Shown in pieces: positions 24,208 through 58,993 of a DNA stretch of 64,000 nt (position 1 is the stretch's first letter; every line of letters begins with the position of its first letter). The translations under genes and the position numbers were made by a program. The stretch comes from Bacteroidota bacterium (GTDB lineage Bacteria > Bacteroidota > Bacteroidia > Bacteroidales > FEN-979). The notes beneath the pieces were generated by a model. The model was not told the DNA's origin and did not search any database. It saw only the letters and a list, made by a program, of their open reading frames with translations. The DNA lies in contig JAPLDF010000068.1 in the NCBI GenBank assembly GCA_026391835.1, positions 313,661 to 377,660 of the forward strand, in the 5' to 3' direction.

Positions 24208-25641
24208 ATGAAAAAACTGGACTTATTCATACTTAAATCATACCTGGGCCCCCTGGTCATGACATTTTTCATTGCACTGTTCATCCTGCTGATGCAGTTT
24301 GTATGGAAGTATATCGACGACCTCGTGGGAAAAGGACTTGAGTGGTTTATCATTGTTAAACTGATGTTTTATGCATCTTCCACCTTTGTCCCCCTTGCCC
24401 TGCCGCTTGCCATCCTGCTTTCATCCCTGATGATGTTCGGAAACCTCGGAGAACACTACGAACTTGTTACCATCAAGGCTGCGGGGATCAGCCTGAGCCG
24501 GATCATGCGCCCGCTGATCGTTGTGTCGATCTGTATCAGCGCCCTCGCCTTTTATTTCTCCAATGTCATCCTGCCGTTCGCCAATCTCAAATTCCACTCC
24601 CTGTTGTTTGATGTCAGGGAGAAAAAACTCTCTTTCAACCTGAAAGAGGGAGTGTTCTATGACGGCATCGAAGGGTTCGTCATCCGGATCGGTAAAAAAG
24701 ACAAAGACGGGAACACGATCCGTGATGTGATGGTGTATGATCATACAAAACATCTCGGCAATGTGTCGCTTACCACTGCCGAATGGGGAAAGATGGAGCT
24801 TTCGCCGGATAAAAAATTCCTGGTGTTCAGGCTATACAATGGCACCAATTATGAAGAACGGGTCGATTTGCGGAACAACGAATCCACGCACCCATTCCAG
24901 CGTACCGAATTTTCGGAACAGTACCAGATGTTCGACCTCTCTGCGTTCCAGCTGACACGGACGGATGAAAGCCTGTTCAAGAAGAATTACGAGATGCAGA
25001 ATATCACCCAGCTGAGCCATTCAATCGACTCGATCAAGACCGATCTGGCCTCCGACCGTAAAGCGTATGAACTCAGTTTTATCAACAGCCAGCAGTTCTA
25101 TGACCGGAAGAGTAACCTAAGACGCAAAAAAGTTGATACCGTCAAGAATTTCAACCCGACCGTCATTTACAATTTCAAGGCGGCAGACCGTTTCAGGATA
25201 CTGGAAGCCGCCCTGAATTCGGCCAAAAGTGCAAAAGACAACCTGGAAGTCAGCAAGGACAATATCTACAATAAAAGCAAGCTGATCTTCAAACACCAGA
25301 TCGTGTATCATAAAAAATTCGCGTTTTCAATTGCCTGCTTCCTGCTGTTTTTCATCGGGGCGCCGCTCGGAGCGATCATCCGCAAAGGAGGCCTGGGAAT
25401 GCCTGCAGTTGTCTCGACCATGTTCTTTATCCTTTTCTGGGTGATCTCGTTCGTAGGTGAAAAATATACTGCCGAAGGCGTCGTTCCTGCCTGGCAGGGC
25501 ATCTGGTTTTCATCGGCGGTACTGATGCCGATCGGTATTTTTCTCACCGTCAAGGCAACCAACGATGCATCCCTGTTCGATGTGGATGCCTGGCTCAACT
25601 TCTTTAAAAAACTGTTTAAACTCCGCGAACGACGCATATGA
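24208..25641 (+). CDS. LptF/LptG family LPS export permease
   Basis: 477 aa. The N-terminus MKKLDLFILKSYLGPLVMTFFIALFILLMQ is typical of YjgP/YjgQ. Three N-terminal TMs, a periplasmic domain and three C-terminal TMs follow. Confidence 0.85.
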   Translation: MKKLDLFILKSYLGPLVMTFFIALFILLMQFVWKYIDDLVGKGLEWFIIVKLMFYASSTFVPLALPLAILLSSLMMFGNLGEHYELVTIKAAGISLSRIMRPLIVVSICISALAFYFSNVILPFANLKFHSLLFDVREKKLSFNLKEGVFYDGIEGFVIRIGKKDKDGNTIRDVMVYDHTKHLGNVSLTTAEWGKMELSPDKKFLVFRLYNGTNYEERVDLRNNESTHPFQRTEFSEQYQMFDLSAFQLTRTDESLFKKNYEMQNITQLSHSIDSIKTDLASDRKAYELSFINSQQFYDRKSNLRRKKVDTVKNFNPTVIYNFKAADRFRILEAALNSAKSAKDNLEVSKDNIYNKSKLIFKHQIVYHKKFAFSIACFLLFFIGAPLGAIIRKGGLGMPAVVSTMFFILFWVISFVGEKYTAEGVVPAWQGIWFSSAVLMPIGIFLTVKATNDASLFDVDAWLNFFKKLFKLRERRI

Positions 25642-26885
25642 GAATCCTTTTCCTGTGCAACAAATCGCCCTGGCCGCCAAAAGAGGGCGGACCGATGGCC
25701 ATGAACATGCTCATCGAAGGGTTGGTGGATGCAGGTCACCAGGTGAAGGTTCTGGCAGTCAACTCGTTCAAATACAATATTTCGGCAGATGACATTCCCC
25801 TCTCCTATGCCGAAAAAACCGGGATTGAACTGATCGATGTCGACTTGCGCATCAAGCCCGTGGATGCCTTTTTAAATCTCTTCACCGGTGAATCTTATCA
25901 TGTCAGGCGTTTCATCTCCGAAAAATTCAGGACCCGGCTGATTGAGATCCTCAGGGCTGGCAAATTCGACATCGTTCAGCTCGAAACCCTGTTCATGGGT
26001 CCGTATATCGGCACCATCAGGGCAAATTCTCCGGCGAAAATCATACTCAGGGCGCACAACATCGAACACCTCATCTGGGAGCGGATAGCAGAAGAGACAA
26101 AAAACCCGGCCAGGAAGTGGTACCTGAACCACCTGGCCGTAACCCTAAGGAATTACGAACAGAAAACCGCCATGGAAGTCGATGGCATCCTGGCAATCAC
26201 CCCCAAAGATGCCGGATACTTCACCACCCTGACTACCCACCAAAATCGTAAATCCGCAATCGTAAATCGTAAATCCGATATCTCCCCAATCCCCGTCACC
26301 GCCCTTCCCTTCGGCCTCGATCCTGCAAAATACCGTGTTGATCCAGTTGATCTCGAATTTCCATCCCTTTTTTCCCTGGGATCGATGAACTGGATTCCGA
26401 ACCAGGAGGGGATCCGCTGGTTTCTTGAGCAGGTATGGCCCGATATTCACAACCAATTTCCCAAACTCAACTATTATATTGCCGGACGTGAAATGCCAGG
26501 ATGGATGCGCGCCCTGGCTCTGCCAAACGTGGTGGTGCTCGGCGAGGTGGAGGACGCCAGGGCTTTTCTTGCATCAAAGGCCATCATGATCGTTCCCCTC
26601 TTTTCAGGAAGCGGCATCAGGGTGAAAATCATCGAAGGGATGGCTTGCGGGAAGACCATCATTTCAACCAGCATCGGGGCGGAGGGGATCAGCTGCACAC
26701 ATCGCGAAAATATCCTCATTGCCGACGCTCCGTGCGAATTTTTCGAAATGATCTCCATTTGTATCACAAACCCTGCCCTGTGCAATAAAATAGGAAAACA
26801 GGCCCGGGCACTGGTCGAAACGGCATACAACCCCACGATTCTGATTCAAAAATTGTTGACTTTTTATCAGGAACTCACGGGATAG
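25638..26885 (+). CDS. glycosyltransferase family 4
   Basis: 415 aa. The start overlaps the upstream stop (ATGA). The N-terminus is MRILFLCNKSPWPPKEGGPMA. The C-terminal half, ...PLFSGSGIRVKIIEGMACGKTIISTSIGAEG, is a GT4 E-x7-E type region. Confidence 0.85.
   Translation: MRILFLCNKSPWPPKEGGPMAMNMLIEGLVDAGHQVKVLAVNSFKYNISADDIPLSYAEKTGIELIDVDLRIKPVDAFLNLFTGESYHVRRFISEKFRTRLIEILRAGKFDIVQLETLFMGPYIGTIRANSPAKIILRAHNIEHLIWERIAEETKNPARKWYLNHLAVTLRNYEQKTAMEVDGILAITPKDAGYFTTLTTHQNRKSAIVNRKSDISPIPVTALPFGLDPAKYRVDPVDLEFPSLFSLGSMNWIPNQEGIRWFLEQVWPDIHNQFPKLNYYIAGREMPGWMRALALPNVVVLGEVEDARAFLASKAIMIVPLFSGSGIRVKIIEGMACGKTIISTSIGAEGISCTHRENILIADAPCEFFEMISICITNPALCNKIGKQARALVETAYNPTILIQKLLTFYQELTG
26243..26277. 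repeat. AATCGTA-type word array inside the GT4 CDS, read in frame
   Basis: aaatcgtaaatccgcaatcgtaaatcgtaaatccg encodes part of HQNRKSAIVNRKSDISP. The vocabulary is the same as at 20157-20190. Confidence 0.85.
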
Positions 26886-26899
26886 CGCGGTTTTTTTTA

Positions 26900-26907
26900 T
26901 ACTTTTG
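26900..26907 (+). promoter_or_regulatory. -7 box TActTTTG
   Basis: tacttttg ends 2 nt before the ORF-track ATG 26909, which therefore cannot be the start. This supports ATG 26927. Confidence 0.4.
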
Positions 26908-26926
26908 CATGCTACAAGCTACATTC

Positions 26927-28093
26927 ATGCGATTGTTTTTTATTTTACCCCGGGTTCCATATCCAACTGAAAAAGGCGACAAACTAAGGGCTTTTCATCA
27001 GATCAAGCAGCTTTCAAAACATCATGAGATCATCCTTTGCGCCCTGAACGACGGAGATTTGCATGAAAATGCAATAGCGGTGCTGAAAAAGTATGTCAAA
27101 GCCATCCATATCATTCCAATTTCGAAGATTTCGATCGCTTTCAACCTGGTAAAGACCCTGTTTTCAAACAAGCCGCTCCAGGTGGGTTATTTTTACAATG
27201 CATCTTCCGCAGCTAAAATTCATTCGCTTATCGAGGAGTATAAGCCGGATCACATCTTCTGCCAGCTGATCCGTGTTGCCGAATATGTAAAGGACATCCC
27301 GATTCCGAAAACACTCGATTACCAGGATGTTTTTTCAAAGGGGGTTGAAAGAAGGCTTGCCACTGCACCTTTTTACCTGAAACCGTTCCTGAAGATCGAA
27401 TACAACCGGCTGCTCCGTTACGAACATGATGCTTTTGAAGCATTCGATCACAAAATGATCATCTCAGCCCCCGACCGCGACATGATCCCGCATCCCGGGC
27501 GGGACCAGATCGTAGTTGTTGCAAATGGCGTGGATACTGATTTTTTCAGTCCGCAGGAGGCCGAAAAGAAGTACGACCTCGTCTTCACCGGCAATATGGG
27601 TTACCCGCCGAACATCAAAAGTGCTGAATTCCTGGTCAACGAAATCCTGCCGGTCGTATTGGCTCAAAAACCCGACCTGAACCTGCTGATTGCAGGAGCC
27701 AGTCCGAACTTACGGGTGATGGCACTAAAATCTTCACAGGTCAGTGTAAGCGGCTGGGTGCCGGATATGCGCGCGTGTTACGCCAGTGCCCGGATATTCA
27801 TTGCCCCCATGCAGATCGGCACCGGTTTGCAAAATAAGATCCTTGAAGCAATGGCCATGCGAATCCCCTGCATCACCTCGCCTCTTGCATTCAAAGCGCT
27901 GAATGCCAGGGAAGGTGTGGATATCCTGGTTGCCTCAACACCGAAAGAGTACGCCGCACACATCATGATGCTCCTGAACAATCCCGGAAAAGCCGGTGAA
28001 ATCGCCCAAAACGGGTACGATTTCGTCCACCGGAATTTCAACTGGGAAACTGAAACCGAAAAGATCAACATGCTGATCGAAGGGGGAAAGTGA
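26927..28093 (+). CDS. glycosyltransferase (GT4-like; the ORF track starts at 26909)
   Basis: MRLFFILPRVPYPTEKGDKLRAFHQIKQL... and the C-terminal FIAPMQIGTGLQNKILEAMAMRIPCITS are typical of group-1 glycosyltransferases. Confidence 0.8.
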   Translation: MRLFFILPRVPYPTEKGDKLRAFHQIKQLSKHHEIILCALNDGDLHENAIAVLKKYVKAIHIIPISKISIAFNLVKTLFSNKPLQVGYFYNASSAAKIHSLIEEYKPDHIFCQLIRVAEYVKDIPIPKTLDYQDVFSKGVERRLATAPFYLKPFLKIEYNRLLRYEHDAFEAFDHKMIISAPDRDMIPHPGRDQIVVVANGVDTDFFSPQEAEKKYDLVFTGNMGYPPNIKSAEFLVNEILPVVLAQKPDLNLLIAGASPNLRVMALKSSQVSVSGWVPDMRACYASARIFIAPMQIGTGLQNKILEAMAMRIPCITSPLAFKALNAREGVDILVASTPKEYAAHIMMLLNNPGKAGEIAQNGYDFVHRNFNWETETEKINMLIEGGK

Positions 28094-37833: not shown

Positions 37834-38055
37834 TTTCCCAGCCAAAATAAAATGCTGAAAGTATGATTACCTTTTCCCGTTTTTCCGATTAAGCAATAAT
37901 TAAGGACAGCAATATCCCTTATGATGAATTAATCTGGTGTCAACCGCTCTGTGCTTCTCCGGGTGTGATCTGTGTCTCTCTGTGCAACAAATAATTACAC
38001 GGAGGGTCACAGAGATCTGTGAAGAACCACAGAGAGAAAAAACGAAATAATTCCC
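37834..38055 (+). repeat. composite element copy A: conserved ~100-nt module plus CACAGAG-word hairpin plus short tail
   Basis: tttcccagccaaaataaaatgctgaaagtatgattaccttttcccgtttttccgattaagcaataattaaggacagcaatatcccttatgat... is followed by the hairpin 37947-38036. It is near-identical to copy B over the first ~130 nt. Confidence 0.9.
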
Positions 38056-38363: not shown

Positions 38364-38590
38364 CATGGAGGCTACTCTTTATACAAATCTTTCCCAGCCA
38401 AAATAAAATGCTGAAAGTATGATTACCTTTTCCCGTTTTTTCGATTAAGCATTAATTAAGGACAGCAATATCCCTTATGATGAATTAATCTGGTGTCAAC
38501 CGCTCTGTGCTTCTCCGTGTGAGCTCGGTGTCTCTGTGTAACAAATAATTACACGGAGGTTCACGGAGATCCGGAGAGAACCACAGAGAG
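38364..38590 (+). repeat. composite element copy B (with the 5' extension catggaggctactctttata shared with copy C)
   Basis: The module is 38390-38502 and the hairpin is 38503-38590. The hairpin arms differ from copy A at many positions while the module is almost identical. Confidence 0.9.
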
Positions 38591-45018: not shown

Positions 45019-45056
45019 AAAAAAAGCTGCCCCGTTTTAAAGGGCAGCTTTTTTTT
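45019..45056. terminator. bidirectional terminator between convergent genes
   Basis: aaaaaa agctgccc cgttttaaa gggcagct tttttttt. Confidence 0.8.
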
Positions 45057-46176
45057 ATTCCCTGATCCAGCACCTTCGCCTGATATTGACACGGCCGTCA
45101 TAATTTTTCCAGATTGAGATCGCCTTAAAGTTTTCCTCGAGTTGCGGATGTGTTCTGGCAATTTTGATTCCGGCAGCAATGTATGCCTTGTTCAGTTCAT
45201 GGTAAATAAGCGCCAATACTCCTTTTCCCTGGTAATCGGGCCTTACGCCGATCAGGTACATATGGATCGTGTCATTTTTCCGCATCGCACGCAGCAGGTG
45301 GATGAACCCGAACGGAAACAGGTGCCCGTTTGCCTTCTGCAGGGCCAGTGAAAGGTCCGGCATCGTTATCCCAAACCCGGCAACATCATCGTTTGAATCC
45401 AGGATCATCGAAACAAATTCGGGCCTGATAAATCCGAAATATTGTTTGGTATAATCATCCATCTGTTCCCTGGTAAGCGGTGTAAAGCCATATAAATCAT
45501 GAAAGGCCTCATTGTACATGGCGAACATCTTCGCAGCATAGGGCCTGATATCGGAAGCCTTCTGCGGCTTTAACAAATGCAGGTCGTACTTTTGCATCAC
45601 GATCCTTGTCATCCGTTCAACCTTTGCCGGAATTTCACCAGGGATCATGATCTCAAACTGAACCCAGTCGGTTGCCTTCCGGAACCCAAGCTGTTGAATA
45701 TGATCATTGTAATAGGGGAAATTATAGATCGCCGAAAGGCTGGATATCTGGTCAAAGCCTTCAACCAGCATGCCTTCCGGGTCCATATCGGTAAATCCCA
45801 GCGGCCCGTGAATTCCTGTCACTCCCTTGCTCCTGCCCCAGGCATTGACTGTATCAATCAAAATACGGGAAACCTGCGTGTCGTCAATGAAGTCAACCCA
45901 GCCAAACCTGACAAGCCGGGTGTTCCAGCGTTCAAACTCCTTATGGTTGATGATCCCTGCAATCCGGCCAACCGGCACACCTTCACGGTAAGCCAGCCAG
46001 TATTCGGCTTCACAATAAGAAAAGGCTGGATTTTTATCTTTGCGTAGGGTTTTTATCTCGTCAAACTTCAGTGGTGGGACCCAGAACTTATTTCCTTTAT
46101 ATAATTGAAAAGGAAAGTCAACGAATTTTTTAAGGTCGTTGTGTGTTGAGACCTTTTTTACCAGGATTTCACCCAT
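45055..46176 (-). CDS. GNAT-like N-acyltransferase, paralog of 51123..52268 (candidate bacterial ceramide-synthase-type enzyme)
   Basis: 373 aa, alignable end to end with the 381-aa protein of the Spt operon (LYKGNKFW, NPAF.(Y/F)CEAEYWL, LVRFGW(V/I)DF(I/V)DD, IHGPLGF(T/S)DMD, GVRPDY, RRCWI). Roughly half or more of the positions are identical by eye. Confidence 0.5.
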   Translation of the reverse strand: MGEILVKKVSTHNDLKKFVDFPFQLYKGNKFWVPPLKFDEIKTLRKDKNPAFSYCEAEYWLAYREGVPVGRIAGIINHKEFERWNTRLVRFGWVDFIDDTQVSRILIDTVNAWGRSKGVTGIHGPLGFTDMDPEGMLVEGFDQISSLSAIYNFPYYNDHIQQLGFRKATDWVQFEIMIPGEIPAKVERMTRIVMQKYDLHLLKPQKASDIRPYAAKMFAMYNEAFHDLYGFTPLTREQMDDYTKQYFGFIRPEFVSMILDSNDDVAGFGITMPDLSLALQKANGHLFPFGFIHLLRAMRKNDTIHMYLIGVRPDYQGKGVLALIYHELNKAYIAAGIKIARTHPQLEENFKAISIWKNYDGRVNIRRRCWIRE

Positions 46177-46572: not shown

Positions 46573-47604
46573 ATGAAAAAACTAAAATCACTGAAAACTG
46601 CCTTGCTGAATATCCCGGTAACATCGGTGCTGGCCATTTTACTTGTTTTTGGAGTTATTTTCGGTTGTAAAAAAGATGAAACAACCTCAACCCACAAAGC
46701 TTATAAAAACATGGATGATGCCACTACCACTAATATTATTGCCAGTATTCCGAGAATCGAATTGTCAAAATTGAAGAGTACCCAAATTTCCCTGTATCTT
46801 TCGGTAACTGACCAGAATGGCAAACCTTTTTCCGAATTCAACAAATACAACTTTGTTATAAAGCAGGTTTGTGTTGGGCAACAGGATACCACGGTTGTTG
46901 CTTCGCTATCCTTTTCGAAATTAAACCAGACAGGCAGTAATATCGCAACGCCGCTGGTCCTGGATTATTCGGGAAGTATGGATAGCTATATTGGCGACCT
47001 GGAGCAGGCCGCAGGCAATTTCATTTCAATCAAAAACAACAGCGATCAGATTGAACTGGTAAAATTCAGCACCGAAATTGAGAATGTTCAGCCCTTTTCA
47101 AATGACACGGTAACATTGCTCCAGGCATTGCACAACTGGTGGGCCAATGCCGGAAATACAACGGCATTTTATGATGCCATGATGATGGGTGTGAATGACG
47201 CTGAAACGTTTAACCAGGCCCATTCAACATTCCTGCCAGCAGTAATCGGATTTACTGACGGACTGGATAATGCTTCAAGTATCTATTATTCAGAGTTGAT
47301 CAACCAGGCCTTGGCCAGGCAAATCCCACTGTATACAATTGGATTTGGAGATGCTGATGAAGCGGTGTTGAATACAATTGCAACTCAAACAGGCGGGAGG
47401 TATTATTATACGCCCGATATCACAACGTTGAAAACTCTTTTTTCCCTGATAAGCGGACAATTGAAAAACCTTTACATGGTTTCGTGGGTGTATGATGATC
47501 AATCCTGTTCGGAGGTGCTGATCACAGTTGAAGCAAAGTACACCTGTGCCAACGGTTCATACGCATCGAAGACCCAAAAGATCTTCCATCCGCTTGTTAA
47601 ATGA
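46573..47604 (+). CDS. von Willebrand factor A domain lipoprotein
   Basis: 343 aa with the lipobox VIFGC|KK. It has a MIDAS-like LVLDYSGSMD plus TAFYDAM, GFTDGLDN and PLYTIGFGD. Confidence 0.8.
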   Translation: MKKLKSLKTALLNIPVTSVLAILLVFGVIFGCKKDETTSTHKAYKNMDDATTTNIIASIPRIELSKLKSTQISLYLSVTDQNGKPFSEFNKYNFVIKQVCVGQQDTTVVASLSFSKLNQTGSNIATPLVLDYSGSMDSYIGDLEQAAGNFISIKNNSDQIELVKFSTEIENVQPFSNDTVTLLQALHNWWANAGNTTAFYDAMMMGVNDAETFNQAHSTFLPAVIGFTDGLDNASSIYYSELINQALARQIPLYTIGFGDADEAVLNTIATQTGGRYYYTPDITTLKTLFSLISGQLKNLYMVSWVYDDQSCSEVLITVEAKYTCANGSYASKTQKIFHPLVK

Positions 47605-47706
47605 CAACCTGTCCGTTATCACAACAAAACCGGATGGTCAGTAAATGGCCTTTTTACAGTCATTCCACCAACAAATACATGTTCCATTAAAACCAAAATC
47701 AAAATC

Positions 47707-48252
47707 ATGAAAACGAAAACCGGATTGTTTCCAATGGTCATTTTCCTGGCAATTTGCCTGATTAATTTCTCATGTAAAAAAGACACCACTAGCAGCAGCT
47801 CTTCAAAAAACCAGATTACCTACAAGGGTACTGAATATGCGATGAATAAAGGTTATATGGTAGATTATTACGGTTCAATGCACACCATTGAACTGGATTT
47901 TTTCTCATCAGGAGTTACCGTGTATGCAAACGGTAACGTGATGGATTCACTCGGCGGTACCGGGAACGGGATGTATTTTGACCTGATCAATACCGACTCG
48001 ACGACACTGGCAACCGGAAATTACCCATACGACTCGGTTGGGAATTATCACCCGGGAACTTTTCACAGTGCCGGTTTTGCATTAAATTACAATTTCTCCC
48101 ATGGTGGCGGACAAATCATCACCGTATACGGAGGCACCGTATCCGTGAAAAAAACAGGAACGAACTACGAAATTTCTTATTCGGGCATGACATATGGCGG
48201 GGATCCCATTTCCCTGTATTACAAAGGTGCGCTGAATCACTATTCGTATTGA
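47707..48252 (+). CDS. hypothetical lipoprotein
   Basis: 181 aa with the lipobox INFSC|KKD. Confidence 0.55.
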   Translation: MKTKTGLFPMVIFLAICLINFSCKKDTTSSSSSKNQITYKGTEYAMNKGYMVDYYGSMHTIELDFFSSGVTVYANGNVMDSLGGTGNGMYFDLINTDSTTLATGNYPYDSVGNYHPGTFHSAGFALNYNFSHGGGQIITVYGGTVSVKKTGTNYEISYSGMTYGGDPISLYYKGALNHYSY

Positions 48253-48305
48253 TTTTCATATCTCAACCCAGCGTACAATGTGCTCTGGACCAGGTCCATT
48301 CCTAA

Positions 48306-48351
48306 AAGAGCGATGCCTCAAAACATTTGATTGTTTTGAGGCATCGCTCTT
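48306..48351. terminator. perfect 20-bp hairpin between convergent genes
   Basis: The stem is aagagcgatgcctcaaaaca tttgat tgttttgaggcatcgctctt. On the minus strand it is followed by TTTT. Confidence 0.7.
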
Positions 48352-48371
48352 AAAAATATTAATTTCAGAAC

Positions 48372-49178
48372 CTACTTGGATTTGGCTACTTCACCAAATC
48401 TGAAAATATAACCAACGGAGAATCCAAAATTCCGGTTACACAGTGGATAGTATGGCAATAAGTCATTGTTTGAAGCATAGTCATTATAATCGGTTTTCTG
48501 ACCGGCTGTGGGATTATCCACGCCAATGAATCCCCAGTTATACCTGAAATCCAACACAAGGTCGCCAGGTCCCAGACGCACACCCGGCTGTACACCAAAC
48601 GTAAGGCCTGCGTCGAGCCTCATGGCTTTGTATGCACCTCTCGGGCCACCTGTTTTGCCATTGTCATCGGAAGTCTCTCCCTGTCCAAACTCAACGGTGT
48701 ACTCCTTTTTCTGGGTCGTGTTTTCATAATATTTTTCATTTGCACCGAGCGCAACACCCACATAAGGTCCGATGATCCCATAAACACTGAACATGCCGAA
48801 TTTATAACCGCCTTTGAAGAGAATTGGCATGGTGAAATAGTTGTATGTTGCTGTAGATTTGTATTCAATTGTTTTTCCGGAGATATCGCTTGAATTTGTC
48901 ATCTTAGAACCTTTTTGTTCAAAATTAAACTCTATTTCCATACCAAACATTTTACTGAACATTGGGTTTAACACAAAGCTGACCTGCAACCCGATTTTAG
49001 GCGGATTTAAAACTGATGCATTAACGAAATCGTCACTCACAAGTTTTGACCAGTTCGAATATTTGGATGCTGTCATACCGAATCTCATCCCAAGACCAAA
49101 GCCCTGACTGAATGATTCAAATGAGGAGATCACCAACAGGGATACCAGAATTGCACATAGTAGATGTTTTGTTTTCAT
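48372..49178 (-). CDS. outer membrane beta-barrel protein (porin-family, OMP_b-brl type)
   Basis: 268 aa with a signal peptide, and typical Bacteroidota small-barrel features (GFGLGMRFG...; C-terminal ...GYIFRFG). Confidence 0.7.
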   Translation of the reverse strand: MKTKHLLCAILVSLLVISSFESFSQGFGLGMRFGMTASKYSNWSKLVSDDFVNASVLNPPKIGLQVSFVLNPMFSKMFGMEIEFNFEQKGSKMTNSSDISGKTIEYKSTATYNYFTMPILFKGGYKFGMFSVYGIIGPYVGVALGANEKYYENTTQKKEYTVEFGQGETSDDNGKTGGPRGAYKAMRLDAGLTFGVQPGVRLGPGDLVLDFRYNWGFIGVDNPTAGQKTDYNDYASNNDLLPYYPLCNRNFGFSVGYIFRFGEVAKSK

Positions 49179-49516: not shown

Positions 49517-50035
49517 CATGGAGGCTACTCTTTATAGACGTCTTTCCCAGCCAAAATAAAATGCTGATAGTTTGACTACCTTTTCTTGTTTTTCCGATTA
49601 ATCAATAATGAAGGATGGCAAAATCCCTTATGATTCCTAGCTTCTGACGCTTCTCTATTTTTGTGCGATGCCATTTTTCAAGTAATTGAATTTGAATGAA
49701 GCAACCGAATTGCTGGCAATATTTGTTGCGAGCATTAAAACGGGTAAGCTGGATACCGGGGGAAAAGTACGAAGTATAAAGTACAAAGTACAAACGAAAG
49801 TGGGAAGTACAAAGTTCGAAAGACGAACACTGGCATGCTAATCCCAACCTTTGTACTTCGTCATTCGTACATCGTACTTCGCGGTGTACCGCACAAAATG
49901 TCAGAAGTCAGGAACTGGAGTTAACCCCTCTGTGCTTCTCCATGTGGGCTCTGTGGCTCTCAGTGTAACAAATAAATTACACGGAGGTTCACAGAAATCT
50001 GGAGAGAACCACAGAGAGAAAAACCGAAATGATGG
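49517..50035 (+). repeat. composite element copy C, split by a ~280-bp nested insertion
   Basis: The module is 49517-49634 (about 10 substitutions versus copy A). The insertion is 49635-49914. The hairpin and tail are 49915-50035 (ccctctgtgcttctcc...accacagagagaaaaaccgaaat). Confidence 0.9.
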
Positions 50036-50097
50036 AACTCAATAAGATTATGGGTCAGGGAGAGGCCAAATTGTAGACAAAAACAACCATCCGGAAA

Positions 50098-51102
50098 TTA
50101 AAGCCAGTGTTCTTTTTTATACCATGCGAGGGCTTCTGCAACACCTTTCTCCAGGTCATATTCAGCTTTAAACCCGAAGTCCTTTTCAAGGGGTTCTACT
50201 TCACACCGCCAGTTGGTACTTTTCAGGACATTGTATTTGTCGGTATTTAAGGTTGGGATACTTCCCCATAATCCTGTTACCCGCTCGCCGATTGTTGCAA
50301 TGGTTTTGACAAGGAACAGGGGTACCGTAAAACGCAGTGTCTTCTTCCCCAGTGCCTTTTTGGTGATTTCAGCAAACAATTCCGAAGGGTACTCTTTCCC
50401 ATCAGAAACGAACCATGCCTTGTTTACATGCTGTGAAGCCAGTGCCAGGAAGATGAGCCGGACGAGGTCACGAACATAAATGAACGTAAGAACCTGCTTT
50501 TTGAATCCGATGTATGGCTCCAGTCCCCTGTTGATCGTCTGGAAAAATATGAAGTAATCTTTTTCCTTGGGCCCGTAAACCCCGGTGGGTCGCACGATCA
50601 GCCATGGAAAACCGGTGAGGGAGGTAATGTACCGTTCAGCTTCAAGCTTACTTTTACCGTACAGTTCAATCGGTTTTGGTTCATGGGTGTTCCTGACTGG
50701 TTCGCCGGTATCCGGGTTACCAGGGCCGTATGCTGCCAGGCTGCTGACAAAAAGAAACTTTTCAGGTACCATATCCGCTTCTTTGAGGGCTTCAATAAAA
50801 TGGATGGTATTCCGGCAGTTTACGTTGTAAAAATCTTCTTTTTTCTGTGCCTTTGTAAGCCCGGCGTTGTGAATGATGTATTTAAACCGGATATTGTTCT
50901 TTTTGCACTCATCCAGGGTAACCAGAACCTTTTCACGGCTTGAGAAGTCAAATTCAAGAAATTGAATCCGCTTATCCTGCAAATAACCACGGGAGCTTGA
51001 CTTACGGATACCTGCATAAACCTCCAAACCCTGTTTCAATCCCTCATCTACCAGGAAACTGCCGATGAACCCGCTGGCCCCGGTTATCAATACATTTGCC
51101 AT
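50098..51102 (-). CDS. NAD-dependent epimerase/dehydratase family (extended SDR) reductase; candidate CerR-type keto-reductase
   Basis: Starting from MANVLITGASGFIGS (ATG 51102) avoids the 34-nt overlap implied by the ORF-track start 51156. It has the Rossmann motif TGASGFIG and a catalytic YGKSK. Confidence 0.6.
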   Translation of the reverse strand: MANVLITGASGFIGSFLVDEGLKQGLEVYAGIRKSSSRGYLQDKRIQFLEFDFSSREKVLVTLDECKKNNIRFKYIIHNAGLTKAQKKEDFYNVNCRNTIHFIEALKEADMVPEKFLFVSSLAAYGPGNPDTGEPVRNTHEPKPIELYGKSKLEAERYITSLTGFPWLIVRPTGVYGPKEKDYFIFFQTINRGLEPYIGFKKQVLTFIYVRDLVRLIFLALASQHVNKAWFVSDGKEYPSELFAEITKKALGKKTLRFTVPLFLVKTIATIGERVTGLWGSIPTLNTDKYNVLKSTNWRCEVEPLEKDFGFKAEYDLEKGVAEALAWYKKEHWL

Positions 51103-51122
51103 TTTATCGTTCAAAATTTTTG

Positions 51123-52268
51123 CTATTTCGTTAATTCGAAATGCTTTATCCAGCAACGCCTCGTCAAATGCTGCCTGCCATTGAAATTTTTCCAGATGGT
51201 AAGCGCCTTGGCATTGTCTTCAAGCTGAGGGTTGGTAATTGCTTTCTTGATTCCATATTTGATATAAGCCCGGTGCATTTCATTATAATAGAGGGCATTC
51301 ACCCCTTTTGAATGATAATCGGGACGAACGCCGTTCAGGTACATATCAATGGTATCGTTCTTTTTCATCGCCCGCAGGAGGTAAATAAAACCAAAGGGAA
51401 ACAGTTTCCCGTCGCATTTTTGCAGGGCCTTTGTCAGTGATGGCAATGAAACGCCAAAACCAACAACTTCATCCTCCTCATCGATCACAAAAGAGATAAA
51501 TTCGGGGCGTACAAAGCCAAAGTAGGCTTTAATATACATATCTACCTGCTTCTGTGTCAGGGCTGTATAACCGTAAAGGTCGCCAAACGCGGCGTTCAGT
51601 GTGCGAAACATTTTAGGGGCGTAAGGCAGCAGGTCTTTTGCCTTTTTTGTTTTGAGCACCCTGAGTTTGTATTTTTCCTGCACGAGGAGGGATAACCGTT
51701 CCACCTTGTCGGGGATGGAAGGGGGGATGTCGAATTCATATTGCACCCAGTCGGCTGCTTTGGAAAAGCCGAGATGCTCCATATGTTCAACATAATAGGG
51801 ATAATTGTAAATCGATGCAAGCGTGGCCAGTTCATCAAAGCCCTTGATCAGCATCCCTTCATTGTCCATATCGGAAAAGCCAAGCGGACCATGGATGCCA
51901 TTCATCCCTTTTGACCGTCCCCATTCGAGAACTGTTTCAATCAGGAGACGGGAAACTTCCTTATCGTCAACAAAATCGATCCAGCCAAAGCGCACCAGTT
52001 TTTCATTCCAGCGCTCATTGGCTTTGTTGTTGATGATCCCGGCAACCCGGCCAACGATCTCTTTGCCACGATAAACAAGCCAATACTCAGCCTCACAAAA
52101 ATCAAAAGCAGGGTTTTTCTCCCTGCTCAGTGTGTTCATCTCATCCATCCGCATCTGCGGACACCAGAACTTATTACCCTTATAAAGTTTATTTTGAAAA
52201 GCGATGAACCGTTTGAGATCCTTTTTTGTGATAACTTTTTTTAGTTCAAGCTGGTTTGTGTTTGTCAT
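51123..52268 (-). CDS. GNAT-like N-acyltransferase; candidate bacterial ceramide synthase (bCerS-type)
   Basis: 381 aa, sandwiched 5 nt after the Spt-like gene and 20 nt before the SDR gene. The C-terminal half is GNAT-like (..GVRPDYHSKGVNALYY..). Confidence 0.5.
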   Translation of the reverse strand: MTNTNQLELKKVITKKDLKRFIAFQNKLYKGNKFWCPQMRMDEMNTLSREKNPAFDFCEAEYWLVYRGKEIVGRVAGIINNKANERWNEKLVRFGWIDFVDDKEVSRLLIETVLEWGRSKGMNGIHGPLGFSDMDNEGMLIKGFDELATLASIYNYPYYVEHMEHLGFSKAADWVQYEFDIPPSIPDKVERLSLLVQEKYKLRVLKTKKAKDLLPYAPKMFRTLNAAFGDLYGYTALTQKQVDMYIKAYFGFVRPEFISFVIDEEDEVVGFGVSLPSLTKALQKCDGKLFPFGFIYLLRAMKKNDTIDMYLNGVRPDYHSKGVNALYYNEMHRAYIKYGIKKAITNPQLEDNAKALTIWKNFNGRQHLTRRCWIKHFELTK

Positions 52269-52273
52269 CAGGT

Positions 52274-53464
52274 CTATTTTGAGATAATATGGAGCTTCTT
52301 CCCCAGCTTCTCAAATTTCTCCAACGCAACATCTACCTGTTCTTTCGTATGGGTTGCCATGAGGGAAAAGCGGATGAGTGTATTGTCCTTGCTAACGGCC
52401 GGTGCCACCACAGGATTCACAAAAATTCCCTCATCAAGCAGCATGCGGGTGATGGTGAGGGTTTTAAGATTATCACGGATATACAACGGGATGATCGGGG
52501 TTACCGTATTGCCGATGTCAAATCCCAACCGCCTGAAGTTGTCGATGGCATAATGGGTCACGTCCCAGAGATGTTTGATGCGTTCTGGTTCGCTTTTAAT
52601 GATTTCAAGGGCTGCGATCACGGCGGCTGCCGAGGCAGGTGTGGCCGAAGCGCTGAAGATCAGTGTACGGGAATGGTGCTTGATATAGTTGATGGTTTCA
52701 AAATCGCTGGCGATAAAACCACCAAGGGCAGCAAGTGATTTTGAAAATGTTCCCATAATCAGGTCAACTTTATCGGTCAGCCCGAAGTGGTTGGCCGTAC
52801 CGGCGCCATTCTTGCCGAGAACACCGATTGAATGCGCATCGTCGACCATGATGGTGGCTTCGTACTTTTCAGCCAGTTTAACGATATCGGGCAACTTTGC
52901 GATGTCTCCGTCCATGCTGAAAACACCATCAACCACGATTAGTTTGATACGGCCTGGCTCGCACTTTTTCAGAACCGACTCCAGGGAATGCATGTCGTTG
53001 TGACGGTACTTGATCACTTTGGCAAATGACAGGCGTGTAGCTTCAATGATGGAAGCGTGGTCGAGTTCATCAATCAGGATGTAGTCGTTGCGGCCTGTAA
53101 CAGTTGGGATGACACCCAGGTTCACCTGGAAACCGGTGCTGTAAACCAGTGCCGATTGTTTTCCTACAAATTCCGCCAGTTTATTTTCAAGTTCGATATG
53201 AATATCGAGGGTTCCGTTCAGGAAGCGGGAACCGGCGCAGCCGGTACCATACTTTTCTGTTGCTTTGATCGCGGCCTCCTTGATTTTCGGGTGGTTGGTC
53301 AACCCCAGGTAACTGTTCGAACCGAACATCAGCACTTTCTTGCCATTCATGGTCACCACGGTATCCTGGTCCGATTCAATCATCCTGAAGAAAGGATAGA
53401 TTCCCATCTTCTCAACTTTCTGGGGCTCGGTATAGTGGGCCAATTTACGCTGTAAAATCCTCAT
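52274..53464 (-). CDS. alpha-oxoamine synthase, serine palmitoyltransferase-like
   Basis: 396 aa, PLP-dependent and AONS/KBL/SPT-like ([33 protein letters not shown]). The N-terminus [11 protein letters not shown]...YPFFRMIES resembles Bacteroidota SPT as I remember it. Confidence 0.65.
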
Positions 53465-53493
53465 TTGTCTGTGTTTCTGTAAAAAATAGCGTG

Positions 53494-53501
53494 CAAAGGT
53501 A
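53494..53501 (-). promoter_or_regulatory. -7 box TAccTTTG for the Spt-like operon
   Basis: The reverse complement of caaaggta is TACCTTTG. It lies 30 nt upstream of ATG 53464, in the 48-nt gap after iorB. Confidence 0.45.
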
Positions 53502-53512
53502 CAAAGAAAAAA

Positions 53513-54097
53513 TTACATATGCTGTTCCGCAAAATCGCGACCGGCCTTTAACGCAATTAAATTCATGTCAATGATCTTGTCTCCTTTTTTCCTGAAAATA
53601 AAACGAATGGCATCTTCAAGTTTTTCGTAGGCCATTCCCAGGAATGGTGAGGCAGCCCCTAAAATCACAATGTTCGTGGCTTTTGTCGACCCGGCTTCTT
53701 TGGCTGTAGCCTCGGCATCCAGCGCAATATGGTGCGGCACTTTTGCAATTTCCTCTATAACTTTATCTATGTCAGGATAATTTGGAATATTGTTAAACGG
53801 TCGGGTGTTGGTAATAACCCAGCCTTCGCCTGAGAGATAGGGAAGATAGCGGAGCGATTCGAGCGGCTCGACTGAAATGATCATATCGGCCTGCCCGAAA
53901 GGTATCAGGTCTGACGCAATATGGTTATGCGAGATCCGGAGATTCGAACTCACATCGCCTCCGCGCTGGCTCATGCCATGAACTTCCGATTGTTTAAGAA
54001 ACATCCCCTGTTCCAGTGCTGCATAGCCGATGATGGAGGCAATTGAGATAATTCCCTGGCCACCCACACCCGCTAAAATGATATCTTTTTTCATCAA
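53513..54097 (-). CDS. iorB: indolepyruvate oxidoreductase subunit beta
   Basis: 194 aa. DIILAGVGGQGIISIASIIG...EVHGMSQRGG is typical of the IorB/gamma-type domain. Confidence 0.85.
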   Translation of the reverse strand: MMKKDIILAGVGGQGIISIASIIGYAALEQGMFLKQSEVHGMSQRGGDVSSNLRISHNHIASDLIPFGQADMIISVEPLESLRYLPYLSGEGWVITNTRPFNNIPNYPDIDKVIEEIAKVPHHIALDAEATAKEAGSTKATNIVILGAASPFLGMAYEKLEDAIRFIFRKKGDKIIDMNLIALKAGRDFAEQHM

Positions 54098-54106
54098 TTT
54101 GTAGAT

Positions 54107-55747
54107 TTACTTGTTCCTGAATTTGTCACGGATGCGCTTGTCGATTGCAACAATGCACTCACGCCGGGGAATGATCACTGAAACACCTGCATAGGCCAGT
54201 TCTTCCTTCATGATGGCAACATTTTCATCATGATATTTTTTGAGTGGTTTCAGAATCCGGATGTGTGCCTCCTCAACACCAAGACCCTTGCATATCTCCT
54301 CAATTTTCCCGAATCCCGGCGAATCCTGCCCCCCGGTCATGGCCGTGGTACCGTTGTCAAGGATCATGATGGTGATGGGGGATTTGTCATTGACGGCGTC
54401 GAGCAGGCCTGTCATGCCCGAATGGGTAAAGGTCGAATCGCCGATTACGGCGACTGCAGGAATCAAACCTGCATCGGCGGCACCCTTGGCCATGGTAATG
54501 GAGGCCCCCATGTCGACGCATGAATTGATCGCCTCATAGGGTTTCAGGGCACCCAGGGTATAACAGCCAATATCGGAGAACACCCTTCCGTTTGACAACG
54601 CACTGAGGGTTTCACTTAACGCATAATAGGAGTCGATATGCGGGCAACCGCTGCAGAGTGAGGGCGGGCGGCCTACCACAAGTTCAGGAACCGGCAGCCC
54701 GAACGTGTCAGGTTTTCCCAGGGCAACCGCAACAAGGTTCGGGTTGAGTTCACCGTCGCGCGGCAGCGTGCCGTCGAGGCGCCCTTTGACTTTCAAACCC
54801 CGTCCAAGGTAGCCTTTCAACAACTCTTCAACAACAGGATAACCATCTTCGATCACCAGGATTTCGTCACATTCATCAGCCATTTTTTCCACCAGGGTGC
54901 GCGGCATGGGGTATTGCCCGATCTTCAGCACAGGGTGGGGCACATTCCGGTCGGCGAAATTCTCCAGGAGGTAATTGTAGGCGATTCCGCATACGATAAT
55001 ACCCAGCGATTTATCGGGGCCGTCAATATATTTGTTAAAAGGGGAGGATTCCGACTCGGTGATGAAAGATGAATGATCCCGCAGCAGGTTCTTGTAACGC
55101 TTCCTGGCGATATTGGGAAGCAGCACAAACTGGCGAAGGTCGGATGGCATTTTCAGGTCGTTCTGTTTCCTGATTTCAGCCTTACGCGCCACGCCTGAAC
55201 GTGAATGGGCCATCCTGGTAGTGATGCGCATCAGCACCGGTACTTTATATTTTTCAGAAAATTCAAATCCATAATGAACCATATCGTACGCCTCCTGCTG
55301 GTCGCTCGGCTCGAGGATCGGTACAAGGGCAAACTTCCCGTAGAACCGCGAATCCTGTTCATTCTGGGATGAATGCATGGACGGATCATCTGCAGAAACG
55401 ACAATCAGCCCCCCGTTTGCACCGGTTATGGCGGAATTGATAAAAGGATCGGCAGCAACGTTCAGCCCGACATGCTTCATACACACCATGGCCCGCTTAC
55501 CCGCATAGGACATTCCAAGTGCCGACTCCATGGCTGTTTTTTCATTGGTCGACCAATTTGAATGAATATGGTTTTCGTGCGCAAACCGGGAATTCTGAAC
55601 AAATTCGGTAATTTCGGTCGAAGGGGTTCCGGGATAGGCGTATATGCCAGACAAACCAGCATCCAGGGCAGCCTGGGCAATGGCTTCATCCCCCAATAAT
55701 AATAATTTCTGCATAGGTTGATTTAAAAGGTAATTGAACTTGGACAA
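54107..55747 (-). CDS. iorA: indolepyruvate ferredoxin oxidoreductase subunit alpha (start may be the second Met, 55714)
   Basis: It has KLLLLGDEAIAQAALDAGL..YPGTPSTEI and a TPP-binding region GDSTFTHSGMTGLLDAV. It lies directly upstream of iorB. Confidence 0.85.
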   Translation of the reverse strand: MSKFNYLLNQPMQKLLLLGDEAIAQAALDAGLSGIYAYPGTPSTEITEFVQNSRFAHENHIHSNWSTNEKTAMESALGMSYAGKRAMVCMKHVGLNVAADPFINSAITGANGGLIVVSADDPSMHSSQNEQDSRFYGKFALVPILEPSDQQEAYDMVHYGFEFSEKYKVPVLMRITTRMAHSRSGVARKAEIRKQNDLKMPSDLRQFVLLPNIARKRYKNLLRDHSSFITESESSPFNKYIDGPDKSLGIIVCGIAYNYLLENFADRNVPHPVLKIGQYPMPRTLVEKMADECDEILVIEDGYPVVEELLKGYLGRGLKVKGRLDGTLPRDGELNPNLVAVALGKPDTFGLPVPELVVGRPPSLCSGCPHIDSYYALSETLSALSNGRVFSDIGCYTLGALKPYEAINSCVDMGASITMAKGAADAGLIPAVAVIGDSTFTHSGMTGLLDAVNDKSPITIMILDNGTTAMTGGQDSPGFGKIEEICKGLGVEEAHIRILKPLKKYHDENVAIMKEELAYAGVSVIIPRRECIVAIDKRIRDKFRNK

Positions 55748-58153: not shown

Positions 58154-58993
58154 ATGTTTTCGTTTTCGCTGCTCTCCGACATCTCGTTTGACAGGCTCCC
58201 TGCCCAGATGCAACTCATCCTGGGCAACAAGCGGCCATATGAAGAGAGCATCGAACAGCTTCGCGACATTCTTTCCTTCATTGATTTGACACCCCAGGAG
58301 GGATCAGATAACCAGGAACAAGTTCTATCACTTTGTGAAAAAGCCGTTTCATTTGGTGAACAAGGGCTGCCGCTCCCTGCTGCAGTTTGTATTTACCCGC
58401 CATTTATCGCCACGGCAAAACGAGCCCTTCAGGCTGCTCCCATCAAAATAGCAACCACTCCATCTGCGTTCCCGTGCAGGGAGATGCCTGTTTCGGTGAG
58501 GCTGGATAAGATCAGGCATGCCATTGAAGATGGTGCTGATGAAATTGATGTTGCGATTTCCCACGGCACATTATTGGCAAGGGAGTACAACAAACTGTTT
58601 CGCGAAGTGGATGCCATGCGCGAGCTTTCCAGCCACCGAACCCTGAAAATAATCCTGGAACCCGGGGAATTGCAAACCCCTGAAAATATTGCCCGGGCCA
58701 GTGAAATTGTCATTGAAGCAGGTGCCGATTTTATCACTTCCTGTGCGGGCAGTATGGCTGCTTCAGCAAGTGATCAAGCTGTTTTCGTGATGCTCCTGGT
58801 AATCAGGGAATGTCACCGGAAAAACGGAAAAAAAATCGGCATCAAACTTACCGGGGGAATTTCCGATCCTGAAAAAGCACTTGATTATTACTGGCTGGTA
58901 GAGCAGGTGCTGGGCCGGCAATGGCTTACAAACAAATTGTTCAGGTTGGGTGCAAACAGTCTTGCAGACCGCATTGTTGAAATTATTTTGTAG
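58154..58993 (+). CDS. deoxyribose-phosphate aldolase (DeoC)-like protein lacking the canonical Schiff-base lysine
   Basis: 279 aa, alignable with E. coli DeoC (CIYPPFI, GADEIDVAIS, LKIILEPGEL, IGIKLTGGI). However, GADFITSCAGS replaces GADFIKTSTGK. Confidence 0.6.
   Translation: MFSFSLLSDISFDRLPAQMQLILGNKRPYEESIEQLRDILSFIDLTPQEGSDNQEQVLSLCEKAVSFGEQGLPLPAAVCIYPPFIATAKRALQAAPIKIATTPSAFPCREMPVSVRLDKIRHAIEDGADEIDVAISHGTLLAREYNKLFREVDAMRELSSHRTLKIILEPGELQTPENIARASEIVIEAGADFITSCAGSMAASASDQAVFVMLLVIRECHRKNGKKIGIKLTGGISDPEKALDYYWLVEQVLGRQWLTNKLFRLGANSLADRIVEIIL

Follow-up and report, generated by a model that had tools for sequence, protein, structure and literature searches.

In Caulobacter crescentus, ceramide synthesis involves a serine palmitoyltransferase (Spt, CC_1162/CCNA_01220), a bacterial ceramide synthase (bCerS, CC_1154/CCNA_01212) and a reductase (CerR, CC_1164/CCNA_01222), whose genes are spread over 17 genes. 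In the current study, members of the same three families were found in one tight operon of a Bacteroidota bacterium (FEN-979; assembly GCA_026391835.1, contig JAPLDF010000068.1, positions 313,661-377,660). The window, i.e. the whole stretch of 64,000 nt that was analyzed, carries spt (52274-53464), bcerS1 (51123-52268) and cerR (50098-51102) on the minus strand, together with a paralogue of bcerS1 (bcerS2, 45055-46176, minus strand). It is very probable that this locus is a dedicated dihydroceramide operon of the bacterial Spt/bCerS/CerR pathway. It adds a fresh, unusually compact case to a pathway that is already known, and will not surprise a specialist.

In sphingolipid-producing Bacteroidota the three genes have been described as dispersed (PMC11334938; likewise PMC9278070). 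In Porphyromonas gingivalis PG1780 is the Spt and PG0276 the ceramide synthase (PMC9788703). The gut Bacteroides and Porphyromonas share with the window both the phylum and the Spt subfamily (BT_0870 and PG1780).

Identity of the three enzymes

The genes are co-directional, with 5 nt between the spt stop codon and the bcerS1 start and 20 nt between the bcerS1 stop codon and the cerR ATG. This agrees with an earlier reading made from the sequence only (the sequence-only reading), which had also named the trio of the Caulobacter ceramide pathway; the Spt, bCerS-family and CerR-type assignments all hold. The mechanical list of open reading frames contained an alternative cerR start (TTG at 51156, 352 aa), which would overlap bcerS1. 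The ATG at 51102 is favoured, because homologues are 317-337 aa long and the Rossmann motif then lies at residues 7-14.

The spt product (396 aa) is a predicted pyridoxal phosphate (PLP)-dependent alpha-oxoamine synthase (AOS) that matches Pfam Aminotran_1_2. It scored 684.8 bits against NCBIfam NF047600 (SerpalmtaseCFB, the equivalog model for Bacteroidota-type Spt; cut-off 640), and was below the cut-offs of the next models (BioF/Kbl, Kbl, BioF and ALAS). Its best match in the PDB was the Sphingobacterium multivorum SPT (8guh/3a2b; 503 bits, 57% identity over 387 ungapped residues), compared with 319 bits for a BioF/Kbl-like protein, 284 bits for Kbl, 243 bits for the cysteate-C-fatty acyltransferase 28eh and 235 bits for Alistipes SulA (7u7h). 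The active-site motifs TFSKS (residues 239-243, with the PLP-lysine) and DDAHS (208-212) both aligned with the same motifs in 8guh. By sequence the enzyme is thus a Bacteroidota-type serine palmitoyltransferase, predicted to condense serine with acyl-CoA, and the suggestion that this AOS is of the Spt type was confirmed, as it groups with characterized Spt and not with BioF/Kbl or cysteate acyltransferases.

For the 381-aa bCerS1, Pfam gave only a weak match to Acetyltransf_1, a sequence search of the PDB returned no match and no NCBIfam model matched. Its relatives are labelled by annotators as "hypothetical protein" or "N-acetyltransferase". An AlphaFold2 model was built from an alignment of 29 sequences (pLDDT 93.6, pTM 0.90), and the top Foldseek matches of this model were tandem GNATs (E 1e-10 to 1e-15). 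The nearest solved folds were 5kf1 (a glucosamine N-acetyltransferase), MAB_4324, the tandem GNAT of the clavulanate pathway, MshD and Eis; 7q3a and 2wpw were also among the tandem-GNAT matches. The sequence-only reading had seen a GNAT-like C-terminal half. That half is indeed GNAT-like, but the N-terminal half proved to be so too in the model, so that the fold as a whole is that of a tandem GNAT. The CoA-pyrophosphate loop (CoA-binding type) is kept only in the C-terminal half (RPDYHSKG, residues 315-322, with G322 invariant).

The bCerS1 family is large and its sequences are well conserved. Over 7,700 close relatives were counted, and clustering at 50% identity gave 5,412 clusters (E <= 1e-3), nearly all of about 375 aa. 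When bCerS1 was compared by tblastn with plasmid and chromid records, full-length homologues of about 25% identity were found in alphaproteobacterial sphingolipid clusters. In Sphingomonas parapaucimobilis the gene order was NAD(P)H-binding protein (cerR), acyl carrier protein (ACP), AOS (spt) and, further on, lptF, lptG, desaturase and N-acetyltransferase. In Roseomonas marmotae it was ACP, AOS and, further on, two LptF/G permeases, "dATP pyrophosphohydrolase", nucleotidyltransferase, acyl-AMP ligase and epimerase. The published Caulobacter map places LptF2/LptG2 at CC_1156/CC_1155, bCerS at CC_1154 and a nucleotidyltransferase at CC_1153, and the orthologues in S. wittichii are Swit_3897 (cerR), 3899 (acpR), 3900 (spt), 3905/3906 (lptF2/G2) and 3908 (cerS) (PMC11324152, including its S2 table). 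Because the cluster orders match these maps, the Sphingomonas and Roseomonas proteins were taken as positional orthologues of bCerS.

A profile of the bCerS1 family aligned with the Roseomonas protein at the CC_1154 position over 366 columns (hhalign, probability 100%, E 3.5e-47), and BLASTP matched bCerS1 to the Sphingomonas protein at the CC_1154/Swit_3908 position (E 5e-33). The proposed relationship of the GNAT-like protein to bCerS is therefore supported by homology over the full length. Through these positional orthologues the 381-aa protein is assigned to the bCerS family, and N-acylation activity is predicted for it.

The 334-aa cerR product is an extended short-chain dehydrogenase/reductase (SDR) of the epimerase/dehydratase family. 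The motifs TGASGFIG and YGKSK, both reported from the sequence earlier, are present at residues 7-14 and 148-152. It matched Pfam Epimerase (7.5e-31), and a match to adh_short covered residues 3-101 only. The reductase of the Sphingomonas cluster was 26% identical over the full length (E 4e-30, 103 bits), and scores elsewhere were lower (best NCBIfam model HpnA, 74 bits; best PDB chain, 49 bits). The match to the Roseomonas cluster reductase was weaker (E 1e-9) and of partial length. In an unbiased tblastn search the best matches outside Bacteroidota were SDR genes adjoining bCerS-family and AOS genes in Rubrobacter, Streptomyces, Sphingomonas, E. coli, Klebsiella and Rahnella. The SDR is thus CerR-like, nearest to the CerR genes of the alphaproteobacterial sphingolipid clusters, with a predicted reductase activity, and the earlier assignment of a CerR-type reductase stands. 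In SDRs, basic residues after strand beta-2 go with a preference for NADPH; CerR has R33 and K34 at this place, and its cofactor is probably NADPH. The 3-ketosphinganine reductase BT_0972 is a classical SDR of about 31 kDa (PMC9278070). A BT_0972-type enzyme (classical SDR, related to TSC10/FVT1) was ruled out for CerR, which is an extended SDR.

Linkage of the genes and comparison with known clusters

A synteny scan was made with an alignment of eight bCerS-family sequences (the 29-sequence alignment was too diverse) and one genome per species, which gave 80 loci; linkage was scored as spt within 3.5 kb of the GNAT gene. The GNAT gene was adjoined by spt in 18 of the 80 loci and by an SDR gene in 14. 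The linked loci belonged to Bacteroidales, Prolixibacteraceae, Flavobacteriales, Chitinophagaceae, Sediminibacterium, Saprospiraceae, Cytophagales, Ekhidna and Prevotellaceae, and to one member of the Phycisphaerae, and the orders spt-bcerS-cerR, spt-cerR-bcerS and cerR-spt-bcerS all occurred. Among other Bacteroidales (loci in other genomes are denoted by L numbers), L005 has the order spt-GNAT-GNAT-cerR, and in L039 two GNAT genes in tandem come after spt, without an SDR gene next to them. In Streptomyces and Rubrobacter the order AOS-GNAT-SDR is that of the window. The three families thus co-occur in Bacteroidota, Planctomycetota, Actinomycetota and Pseudomonadota in varying orders, which argues for functional coupling of the trio.

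In a rough neighbour-joining tree, the spt-linked GNAT genes did not form one clade apart from the unlinked ones, so that linkage cannot be used to split the bCerS family into functional subfamilies. In two Prevotellaceae loci (L052 and L054), spt and the gene of the bCerS homologue are separated by two genes that are related to each other by sequence clustering, and the first of these has a thioredoxin-type WCGPC motif.

The homologues in B. finegoldii are 48% (bCerS) and 44% (SDR) identical to the proteins of the window. The genes lie scattered in gut Bacteroides, Parabacteroides and Alloprevotella, with the bCerS homologue by parE-coaD-S41 peptidase and the CerR homologue by a PAP2 phosphatase gene. 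The published statement on dispersed genes is accordingly valid for gut Bacteroides and Porphyromonas but not for the whole phylum, since many environmental lineages have the genes side by side. In B. finegoldii (L087, 7001-8964) the gene of the CerR homologue (44%) overlaps that of the PAP2-family phosphatase, which hints that the reductase is tied to a head-group or phosphate step.

Unlike the Caulobacter cluster, the cluster in the window has no LptF2/G2 or head-group genes, and no ACP (AcpR) or acyl-ACP synthetase (AasR) is encoded at the operon, in contrast to Proteobacteria; it does have a second bCerS copy. bCerS and CerR were each only about 25% identical to the alphaproteobacterial proteins, and Spt 34%. 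The actinobacterial operons of Streptomyces sp. NBC_01001 and Rubrobacter radiotolerans resemble the window in the order of the genes (spt-bcerS-cerR), which overlap or abut, and in the lack of an ACP. They differ in phylum, in sequence (23-28% identity) and in having a single bCerS, and the Streptomyces operon is followed by a condensation-domain gene.

E. coli YghO, another member of the bCerS family, is 28% identical to bCerS1 over 82% of the 381-aa protein (E 2e-33). On an E. coli plasmid (L084, NZ_MG591698.1, 9843-17622) its neighbours are acyl-AMP ligase, epimerase, ACP, AOS and lptG/lptF. That cluster differs from the window in its proteobacterial layout with ACP and Lpt paralogues, and holds a full gene set of the proteobacterial sphingolipid type. 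No characterization of YghO turned up in the searches made, none of which was a literature search aimed at YghO.

Pathway order and alternative explanations

The family assignments, the fold and the gene linkage across phyla are results of the analysis; the substrates, the cofactor and the order of acylation and reduction we infer from the characterized system of Caulobacter. Spt would condense L-serine with a fatty acyl-CoA to give 3-ketodihydrosphingosine. bCerS1, whose CoA-binding loop lies in the C-terminal GNAT half, would attach another acyl chain, donated by acyl-CoA, to the amino group, and CerR would reduce the 3-keto group, probably with NADPH.

Acylation before reduction is favoured by data from Caulobacter, whose CerR is located in the periplasm and in which oxidized ceramide builds up when cerR is deleted (PMC11087976). 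The genes of the window are arranged in this order of steps too (spt-bcerS-cerR), although this is weak evidence. The same enzymes could also work in a eukaryote-like order, in which CerR makes sphinganine from 3-ketosphinganine and bCerS then acylates the sphinganine. Olea-Ozuna and colleagues proposed such a reduction-first order for Caulobacter (PMC11324152), and 3-oxo-sphinganine as well as sphinganine have been reported as substrates that bCerS can acylate (PMC11324152 and its supplement). Moreover, the SDR in the window has its Rossmann motif at residue 7 and no signal peptide, so that the compartment argument from Caulobacter need not apply. On balance the reduction-first order is tenable but somewhat unlikely.

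Two other explanations deny the ceramide product altogether. Bacteroidota make sulfonolipids with an AOS and an NAD(P)H reductase, and we know of no defined N-acyltransferase for these lipids. The sequence-only reading had offered a capnine/sulfonolipid pathway as an alternative. In such a pathway the AOS would be a cysteate fatty acyltransferase, the SDR a dehydrocapnine reductase and the GNAT the missing capnine N-acyltransferase. The window resembles the SulA/CapB and dehydrocapnine reductase system in this logic of AOS plus NAD(P)H reductase, and the presence of two acyltransferase paralogues could be read in its favour. However, the AOS scored only about half as high against the cysteate acyltransferases as against SPT and passed NF047600, no cysteate synthase or second AOS was seen among the open reading frames of the window that were examined, and the same trio is found in users of the Spt pathway among the Actinobacteria and Proteobacteria. 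This alternative was rejected as very unlikely. The other explanation, that only the AOS is a lipid enzyme and the GNAT and SDR are unrelated neighbours, e.g. a small-molecule acetyltransferase and a sugar epimerase, draws on the generic Pfam matches and annotators' labels and on the many family members without a neighbouring spt. Against the gaps of 5 and 20 nt and the recurrence of the three families together in four phyla, in varying gene orders, chance adjacency is highly improbable and was likewise rejected.

Several points nevertheless count against the assignment of the locus to the Spt/bCerS/CerR pathway. Membership of the bCerS family stands on positional orthologues and not on CCNA_01212 or PG0276 themselves, and membership of the bCerS/YghO family does not fix the substrate, because the family is large and most of the 80 loci have no adjoining spt. 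Extended SDRs are all interrelated, and the identity of CerR to the Sphingomonas cluster CerR is just 26%. The SDR of the window leaves no room for an N-terminal signal peptide before its Rossmann motif, and details may thus differ from Caulobacter; the Sphingomonas CerR orthologue likewise opens directly with the Rossmann motif. Finally, a literature search on sphingolipids in Draconibacterium and Prolixibacteraceae returned nothing, and no lipid analysis was found for the family of this organism.

Operon context, the second bcerS gene and implications

The bcerS2 product (373 aa) is 61% identical to bCerS1 without gaps (BLASTP), and all residues invariant in the family are present in it. In two relatives (L001 and L003) bcerS2 directly follows cerR, giving a four-gene unit spt-bcerS1-cerR-bcerS2; in L003 its start lies 4 nt past the cerR stop. 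The bCerS2 clade was sister to the bCerS1 orthologues in the rough neighbour-joining tree, which points to a lineage-specific duplication. In the close relatives the spacer between bcerS1 and cerR, 20 nt in the window, is 115-230 nt long and contains short tandem repeats (GATTTAC, TGCCTAA; L003, 810-1040; L002, 8132-8245).

In the window, 3.9 kb separate cerR from bcerS2, which must here have its own promoter. This stretch holds three envelope genes (46573-49178) coding for a VWA-domain lipoprotein, a 181-aa lipoprotein and an outer membrane beta-barrel protein. An insertion or rearrangement is suggested, because the block is absent from the same position in L001 and L003. The stretch also holds a non-coding part of 900 bp with a repeat element of about 220 bp, of which the window has three copies of 85-89% identity (37834-38051, 38364-38590 and 49517-50033). 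The copy after cerR is interrupted by an insert of 280 bp (49635-49914) with short repeats of the AAGTAC type and inverted arms. A search of Rfam with the operon flanks, including the repeat element, gave nothing above threshold; the element could be MITE-like (miniature inverted-repeat transposable element) or a structured RNA.

For bCerS2 we infer that a second or broader specificity for the acyl chain or the long-chain base is the most likely role. It is unlikely that bCerS2 has diverged to N-acylate another amine lipid, for example the bases of capnine-type sulfonolipids or 1-deoxy bases derived from alanine. If bCerS2 did act on sulfonolipid bases, the bCerS/YghO family would supply the undefined N-acyltransferase of Bacteroidota sulfonolipids.

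The sequence-only reading had placed a box of the TAnnTTTG type in front of spt. The TACCTTTG box is present at 53494-53501 on the minus strand, 29 nt before the spt ATG, as a candidate Bacteroidota -7 element of the operon. The motif TAnnTTTG by itself was not above chance in the window (51 matches; 41.9 +/- 5.9 expected), but TACCTTTG and its flanks (TTTTTTCTTTGTACCTTTGCACGCT) were invariant in the same gap between iorB and spt in L001 and L002, where bases nearer to the ATG vary. This conservation fits a real internal promoter. A scan for sigma-70-type promoters was not informative for Bacteroidota.

The genes iorA (54107-55747) and iorB (53513-54097), which match the NCBIfam models for IOR alpha and beta, lie upstream on the minus strand, and iorB ends 48 nt before spt, as had been noted earlier. 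No terminator-like site was detected by a terminator scan between iorB and spt, and read-through is possible. Adjacency of iorAB and spt was found in two close relatives only (L001 and L002) among the 80 loci, and it is uncertain whether iorAB belong to the spt unit. The idea that iorAB feed acyl-CoA into the pathway gained little from these data, given the restricted adjacency and the conserved promoter-like box between the units. An obligatory part of iorAB in the pathway was rejected; a link to the supply of acyl-CoA primers is possible but found no support.

In the RNA, the 3' part of the repeat element folds into a long, strong hairpin (49915-50040, minus strand; -46.8 kcal/mol, z = -5.7) that starts some 60 nt past the stop codon of cerR, with copies at 37934-38051 and 38490-38590. 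It lacks a T-run and was therefore missed by the terminator scan; it is possibly the end of the spt operon transcript.

Two further features were observed in the surroundings. A gene for a DeoC/LacD-family aldolase recurs near spt (window, 58154-58993, plus strand; L005, 3715-4500; L071, 1342-2085). In L005 and L071 it is the gene immediately upstream of spt, in the same orientation; in the window, L001 and L002 it lies two genes from spt. On the plus strand at 24208-28093, 22 kb from the spt operon, an LptF/LptG-family permease gene is followed by two GT4 glycosyltransferase genes. Proteobacterial sphingolipid clusters carry additional LptF/G and glycosyltransferase genes, but this set may simply be related to lipopolysaccharide.

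The compact, self-contained and ACP-independent unit spt-bcerS-cerR, to which the second bcerS could be added, would make an easy construct with which to produce ceramide in another host and to decide the order of acylation and reduction. The adjacency of the genes provides evidence from context for an extended SDR of the CerR type, and not only the BT_0972 type, as a dedicated reductase of Bacteroidota. The results also link thousands of proteins annotated as "hypothetical" or "N-acetyltransferase", as well as E. coli YghO, to bCerS, and suggest a function for those of them whose genes adjoin spt and cerR.

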